This document shows, piece after piece, positions 54,379 through 54,671 of a stretch of 64,000 nt of DNA; within the stretch, counting starts at the first letter, position 1, and each line of letters opens with the position of its first letter. A program made the position numbers and the translations under genes. The stretch comes from Eledone cirrhosa (lineage: Eukaryota). The stretch is from the NCBI GenBank assembly GCA_964016885.1, contig CAXHJY010000765.1:1-64000 (forward strand), read 5' to 3'. Under the pieces are notes generated by a model, which did not search any database, was not told the origin of the DNA, and saw nothing but the letters and a program-made list of their open reading frames with translations.

Positions 54379-54671
54379 TATAAAGAAAAAAAAGATGAAA
54401 TCGAAAATGCAACTGGAGTCTTATTTTAAAAAAAATATATATATTTATTTGGTTCCTTTACCCGTTTCGCAGATCTTCTGCTTTTCAAACGTAGTTGAGA
54501 TGGAGGGTCTGTGGTTTTTCTCATATCAGATGGGAGAAAAACCACAGACCCTCCATCTCAACACTACTTTTGAAAAGCAGAAGAACTGCGCAACCGGTAA
54601 AGGAACCAAATAAATATATATATTTTTTCAAAAATAAGACTCCAGTTGCATTTTCGATTTCATCTTTTTTT

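Follow-up and report, generated by a model that had tools for sequence, protein, structure and literature searches.

What are hammerhead-like motifs whose core reads UUGAAAA where CUGANGA is expected, and do they cleave? Four such motifs lie in a 64,000-nucleotide stretch of the Eledone cirrhosa assembly (hereafter the window), and the original prediction took them, with their double change of C3U plus G8A, for a natural variant hammerhead family with covarying stems. The letters were confirmed: U3 lies at 10524, 22089 and 54570 on the plus strand and at 54488 on the minus strand, and three copies carry the loop III palindrome CCGG. On balance we favour the reading that at 54318-54678 the 3' pseudo-LTR of a high-copy Penelope-like retroelement has inserted as a short inverted duplication, each arm of which carries a minimal type I U3:A8 hammerhead; intact copies of this hammerhead likely cleave after GUA, weakly and as a dimer.

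The motifs at 54456(-) and 54567(+) lie in opposite arms of a single palindrome and do not count as independent copies. TA repeats are abundant in the 3.0-Gb genome around the window, and the head-to-head palindrome at 54318-54678 is sited in (TA)n, with target repeats at 54276..54317 on the left and 54675..54702 on the right. Its core (54379-54678, about 300 bases) has arms that are 92% identical between (TA)n runs, and the minus arm extends about 60 bases beyond the plus arm. The minus-strand arm at 54318..54527 bears a tail and belongs to the family called A below; over 210 bases it is a 90% match to the 3' pseudo-LTR that a Penelope copy carries in sense, and it runs from the likely transcription start to +213. 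The inverted plus-strand arm at 54528..54678 lacks the tail, covers the start to about +150 and runs into (TA)n. Both ends recur among sampled family-A arms, at +213 in 53 of 95 and at +150 in 27 of 95.

Each arm carries one motif. At 54567..54602 (+) it combines the U3:A8 pair, a 3-bp stem I, a 4-bp stem II and an ACCGGU helix III with a private A13C change, and the cut is predicted between 54599 and 54600. At 54456..54491 (-) U3:A8 and GAAA are intact, stem I has a G-A mismatch and the loop reads CGGG, which breaks the helix III palindrome. Both arms are therefore likely impaired in predicted cleavage and the locus itself is likely inert; moreover, head-to-head arms are unable to give one RNA two sense motifs. 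The remaining two motifs lie in solo copies on the plus strand, namely a short family-B copy between (TA)n runs (22045..22233, motif 22086-22121, U3:A8 with the A13C fixed in its family) and a decayed family-C copy (10484..10610, motif 10521-10556, stem II broken). The two family-A arms join at the likely transcription start, and the family-B copy also begins there. Rfam gave no match in the window at gathering thresholds; among the matches listed at E up to 5 (150 of 811), all were microRNA models, mostly on TA repeats, and hence of no help. The window also holds a near-perfect 74-base hairpin at 24272-24345, probably another repeat junction since a similar stretch occurs in locus L017, tandem repeats at 56503-56714 (period 55, 3.8 copies) and 24960-25145 (period 88, 2.1 copies), and TA-rich degenerate arrays of 2-6.5 kb (12091-14156, 25130-29819, 36969-43528 and 46925-51413), inside which the long open frames of the window fall as likely artefacts.

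Genome searches with the copies at 54530, 22040 and 10484 gave 517, 351 and 1,062 first-look candidates, of which 40 were scored in each case, and 30 loci per search were used to define families A, B and C. All three share UUGAAAA, ACCGGU and GUA. Family A has the stem II GCAG/CUGC and a GAAA box, family B has GCAU/AUGC and GCAA, and family C keeps GAAA with a 3-bp stem II closed by G-U. Since the four window copies fall in three families, the covariation of the original prediction comes down to two compensatory changes between families. Its letters stand for stem II, with GCAG/CTGC (54577-80/54586-89 and the minus arm) against GCAT/ATGC (22096-99/22105-08) and only two of four positions paired in the 10521 copy, and for stem I, with CTT/AAG against TTT/AAA; the independence of the copies does not, the stem I difference being a single change between families A and B. 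Likewise, GCAA in place of GAAA is present in two copies as claimed, with unlike origins. A13 is kept in 76/76 family-A arms sampled by a 3' stretch, so GCAA at 54590 is private decay; GCAA outnumbers GAAA by 11,112 to 42 in the family-B background, so at 22109 it is a family trait.

The U3:A8 pattern had 26,332 exact matches genome-wide and none in the reversed control, a number that chance would not give, and the CUGANGA pattern with the same helix III had 110 against 6 in the control; among the 100 of these 110 that were listed, most belonged to an unrelated family. In the 76 family-A arms U3 and A8 were both invariant, and each CCGG position of helix III was kept in 73-75, with A17 following ACCGGU. 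A canonical CUGANGA core with independent decay of the window copies, which the original prediction had named among the outcomes that would count against it, was not borne out and can hardly be entertained: two family-C-like copies do carry C3 and G8 (L212:1565 (-) and L213:1653 (-)), but the 76 arms, all motifs listed for the long-frame loci and the 26,332 matches against 110 speak for U3 and A8, and double back-mutation or a chimera could account for these single copies. One of the two lacks 6 bases of stem I as well. Other repeat families combine canonical CUGANGA with the same ACCGGU helix III and end in (TA)n (L136-L165, L214, L215, L217-L221). An apparent group with C3:G8 and GCAA (L151, L152, L158, L159, L163) was rejected as hammerheads, having no stem I beside the core and diverged flanks, and L216 was a junction artefact. 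A metagenome scan for relatives with flanks gave 69 pattern matches, none of them confirmed.

The motif belongs to a coding element. A protein search of the genome returned 22,604 candidates; 150 were scored, and many of these lay in open frames of 775 residues. The family-A motif was present in 18/18 long-frame loci fetched and lay downstream, in sense within the pseudo-LTR, in 17/18; upstream copies were tandem or inverted. Insertions of the repeat are found in (TA)n and are frequently arranged head-to-head, with a single arm bearing the tail. Locus L031 shows the order: an inverted copy of the window repeat, a broken RT and GIY-YIG frame with its zinc-finger linker, a 1.3-kb 3' UTR, the sense repeat, the tail and (TA)n. 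Pfam scored GIY-YIG above its cut-off and RVT_1 just below it (E 5e-6). A CX4CxxC linker, shared by the Neptune and Nematis clades, precedes the nuclease in families A and B. With an RT followed by a C-terminal GIY-YIG, tandem and inverted pseudo-LTRs, a tail at one end and a microsatellite target, we assign the host by motifs and architecture to the endonuclease-bearing Penelope-like elements of Neptune/Nematis type. RT-nuclease frames of its own occur in family B, at 50-56% identity to those of A and with the motif in the same sense position, and two family-C loci have a nuclease end upstream. A natural U3:A8 hammerhead that a CUGANGA descriptor misses was upheld, whereas a free-standing new family was not, the motif being the pseudo-LTR hammerhead of a Penelope-like element. 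Homologues of the element protein were many, at 43-74% identity; four of them (P0013, P0038, P0042, P0057) are labelled as bacterial gill symbiont proteins, likely through host contamination of the assemblies.

The Neptune and Nematis elements described in the available text of PMC8557442 agree with ours in the RT with C-terminal GIY-YIG, a CX2-5CxxC linker, partial tandems, an inverted 5'-truncated copy, the one-end tail and microsatellite targets; they differ in a tail of 30-40 bases, against about 63 here, and our elements have an overlapping upstream frame. This frame of 400-450 residues overlaps the RT frame at a T6A heptamer shared by families A and B (L120:2886-2900 (+) and the matching place in L172 (-)); the heptamer is intact in 29/35 family-A and 3/4 family-B matches, and a hairpin lies 3' of it in A and none in B. 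The heptamer resembles a retroviral slippery site, and the overlap is likely to be a -1 ribosomal frameshift. A frameshifted ORF1 is reported for some Penelope types (PMC8557442); for Neptune the literature searched held nothing relevant on frameshifting.

A second inverted Penelope insertion lies at 40304-40794 of the window, with a canonical CUGAUGA hammerhead in both arms (40353-40390 on the minus strand and 40707-40744 on the plus strand). Its family comprises 1,134 candidates, and 24/29 of the motifs sampled are identical. The nuclease that closes its frames has a CxCX5C linker, which PMC8557442 gives as the motif of the Hydra clade. Against family A this element gave no tblastn match at E 1e-4, so it is not a sister of the clade and cannot polarise the change from C3:G8 to U3:A8.

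We also considered a MITE or foldback DNA transposon, or an assembly artefact, as the origin of the palindrome, with a likeness to a hammerhead that arose by chance. A 300-base near-perfect inverted repeat in TA repeats fits such an origin, and so does the lack of Rfam matches at gathering thresholds; however, Rfam at those thresholds is equally without a match for the canonical motif at 40710, the unequal arms match the 3' end of an RT-encoding element, and 28 adjacent head-to-head pairs of similar form occur among 114 sampled arms. As the arms differ by 8%, they are not a read-folding artefact. This origin is very unlikely, and we return to the pseudo-LTR hammerhead.

Set beside published systems, the U3:A8 swap gives up its place as the headline novelty, since it is in print for Penelope elements (PMC4209133, with about 1,300 matches to U3-A8 motifs in Schistosoma) and for other hammerheads (PMC3088659). 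As far as the available text of PMC4209133 goes, the Schistosoma mansoni Penelope hammerheads share with ours the pseudo-LTR position, the UUGAAAA core (row 4 of the alignment), a short helix I, a palindromic helix III and G10.1-C11.1, and their copies are likewise single or on opposite strands 100-700 bases apart. Ours differ in a stem II of 4-5 bp, a GUA site and the absence from A, B and C of the extra unpaired base between 9 and 10.1, which is usual in Penelope minimal motifs and also absent in two rows of that alignment. Family B differs further by its GCAA, the GAAA column of the 2014 alignment (Fig. S3 of PMC4209133) reading GAAA throughout, with one AGAAA and no A13C. The natural U3:A8 hammerheads of PMC3088659 show the same change from C3:G8, called compensatory and active there, in full hammerheads; the core variants given in its available part are A6C, A6a, U13a, U15.1-A16.1 and U4C, not A13C. 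No A13C family was found in the available text of PMC10085705, and family-wide A13C or GCAA was not found in the literature searched, whose coverage is incomplete, the largest survey of these motifs lying outside it. Such blanks are weak, as one of these searches also missed U3-A8 although it is in print. The published state is therefore U3:A8 itself, and what we did not find in print is the fixed A13C of the sister family B. Non-LTR retrozymes (PMC7229834; bioRxiv 10.64898/2026.07.22.740005, both in part) are likewise short, mobile and non-coding, carry a type I hammerhead and are proposed to derive from Penelope pseudo-LTRs. They form head-to-tail arrays with mostly canonical motifs, whereas the copies here are identical to the end of an autonomous element and the sampled arms are solo or head-to-head; the window contains no head-to-tail hammerhead array.

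In a 10-row alignment of the motifs, 94.9% of cells were paired, against 8-52% in slid controls, and the core follows NUGANNA with U-A at 3:8 in all 10 rows, so covariation of this pair is visible only against other families and the literature. The helix II closure 10.1-11.1 is G-C in 7/10 rows, G-U in two family-C rows and unpaired in the decayed 10521 copy. The outer stem I pair is C-G in seven rows and U-A in two, and the enclosing helix I has 3 bp, or 4 bp in the youngest A subfamily. The G12 A13 A14 A15.1 box is kept in families A and C and reads GCAA in family B and the window plus arm, and the minimal palindromic helix III ACCGGU comes with a NUH triplet, the GUA site. The covariation check on the family alignment thus gave a divided answer: two pairs, outer stem I and inner stem II, change on both sides, each in one event between A and B, while the 3:8 pair does not vary within the clade. 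Shuffles reached the alignment score in 6/500 cases, a figure that is not a probability since the rows are related. The covariation is real but thin.

Folding gave a mixed picture. Stem II is predicted in all intact representatives, and predicted self-dimers of four representatives from A, B and C all pair through ACCGGU. No window copy has the complete hammerhead as its predicted minimum fold, a UCAA/UUGA hairpin competes for the core in old A, B and C, and fold z-scores are -0.5 to -1.5, so that folding energy alone gives no support.

We then compared one unit of family A with one of family B, a comparison in which RT residues match at 361/637 aligned positions (57%), fourfold third positions at 28/77 and motif bases at 30/37. 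The flanks match at 36/80 far upstream, 38/60 in the promoter, 26/38 in the leader, 36/76 after the motif and 56/80 in the tail. The motif is therefore the best-kept part: A13 is the one core base that differs between the families, which agree in the 3:8 pairing, G10.1-C11.1, the palindrome and the GUA triplet. The whole transcribed pseudo-LTR is nevertheless conserved above neutral, and conservation of the motif need not mean catalysis. For each of the two families, folding predicts a 5'-terminal hairpin at the likely start, built from different pairs (54529-54557 (+) and 22047-22076), and it may explain the conserved leader.

CCAAT-like and TATA-like boxes lie about 30 bases upstream of CAGAT in both families, with the TATA-like box at -30, and the CAGAT region, about 42 bases before U3, is the likely transcription start. 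For family A, the first 100 matches of a 3' 22-mer on one contig (C1) were all fetched, giving 114 arms. Their 5' starts were distributed as 27 upstream, 61 in -5..+12, 7 in +13..+71, 6 in +72..+77 and 13 beyond. Since the ends pile up at the likely start (61/114), most short copies derive from RNA with an uncut motif. Exact 22-mer counts were 3,389 at -34..-13, 10,387 at +8..+29 and 16,942 at +115..+136, figures that subfamily variants may skew. The first base after the predicted cut is +72, and 6/13 internal family-A starts fall within +72..+77 (p 0.0006 for these predicted positions, 0.02 if any six consecutive positions are allowed). For family B, 80 of the first 100 matches were fetched, yielding 87 distinct arms; the 20 omitted matches adjoin an exact full motif by hand comparison, and starts in +13..+43 may be undercounted. 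Fourteen internal starts lay before the site and none in the six positions after it (Fisher p 0.006, or 0.03 with one borderline case); three apparent starts at +72 reflect an 8-base duplication and are not counted there.

These counts rest on samples and small numbers. Five of the six family-A cut-site starts are at inversion joints with ambiguous boundaries, and 6/14 family-B starts precede the site by 3-11 bases, so joints may be drawn to the ACCGGT palindrome by itself. The excess in A and its absence in B therefore hint at weak cleavage, with a rival cause at hand. That 5' ends record hammerhead cleavage in the host, with most copies uncut, about 5% of A arms coming from GUA-cut RNA and B having lost the footprint with its fixed A13C while exceeding 11,000 copies, is a doubtful proposition that we offer tentatively; the literature searched held nothing relevant on 5' ends at a hammerhead cut site.

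Changes at A13 strongly lower hammerhead activity, and family B, judged by its fixed A13C, probably cleaves less or not at all. The importance of core positions to activity is stated in general terms in PMC3088659, and minimal Penelope motifs show no activity as monomers and low activity as dimers in the available parts of PMC4209133 and the review PMC6765202. In the mechanism that we propose, transcription would begin from a promoter in the pseudo-LTR, about 42 bases upstream of U3. On its own, a motif could not close its 2-bp helix III, so most RNA would stay uncut and be reverse-transcribed to its 5' end, giving copies of about 210 bases like the one in the window. Two motifs pairing through ACCGGU would form a 6-bp helix III and allow an occasional cut. 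An inverted second arm would be formed, and the nuclease would insert the copy into (TA)n.

The most serious competitor traces the motif to a Penelope hammerhead that has stopped cleaving in all of these families and is retained as a structure for RNA dimerisation or packaging, or within the internal promoter and leader. Family B thrives with A13C fixed, and its stem I consists of three U-A pairs with a predicted 6-bp hairpin over the core (pair probabilities 0.88-0.99); the prevalence of short copies with an uncut motif and the conserved flanks also suit this explanation, and the function of hammerheads in these elements is called unclear in PMC8557442 (available text). Against it stand the rest of the core and the pairings kept between A and B, the longer stem I of the youngest A subfamily, and the excess of family-A starts just after GUA. 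We consider the loss of cleavage in every family somewhat unlikely and retain weak, dimer-dependent cleavage by intact copies.

The U3:A8 swap alone would add one more host to a published variant, and about 26,000 motifs of this genome escape CUGANGA descriptors. The role of Penelope hammerheads is left open in PMC8557442. In this genome family A, with its intact core and about 17,000 arms, and family B, with fixed A13C and about 12,000 arms, are both abundant and young. If the 5' ends do record cleavage, the two families would form a natural on/off test, showing that Penelope elements can move without cleavage and still retain the fold and the ACCGGU pairing. Since 5' ends can be counted on tens of thousands of copies, the question of what these hammerheads do for Penelope elements becomes testable.
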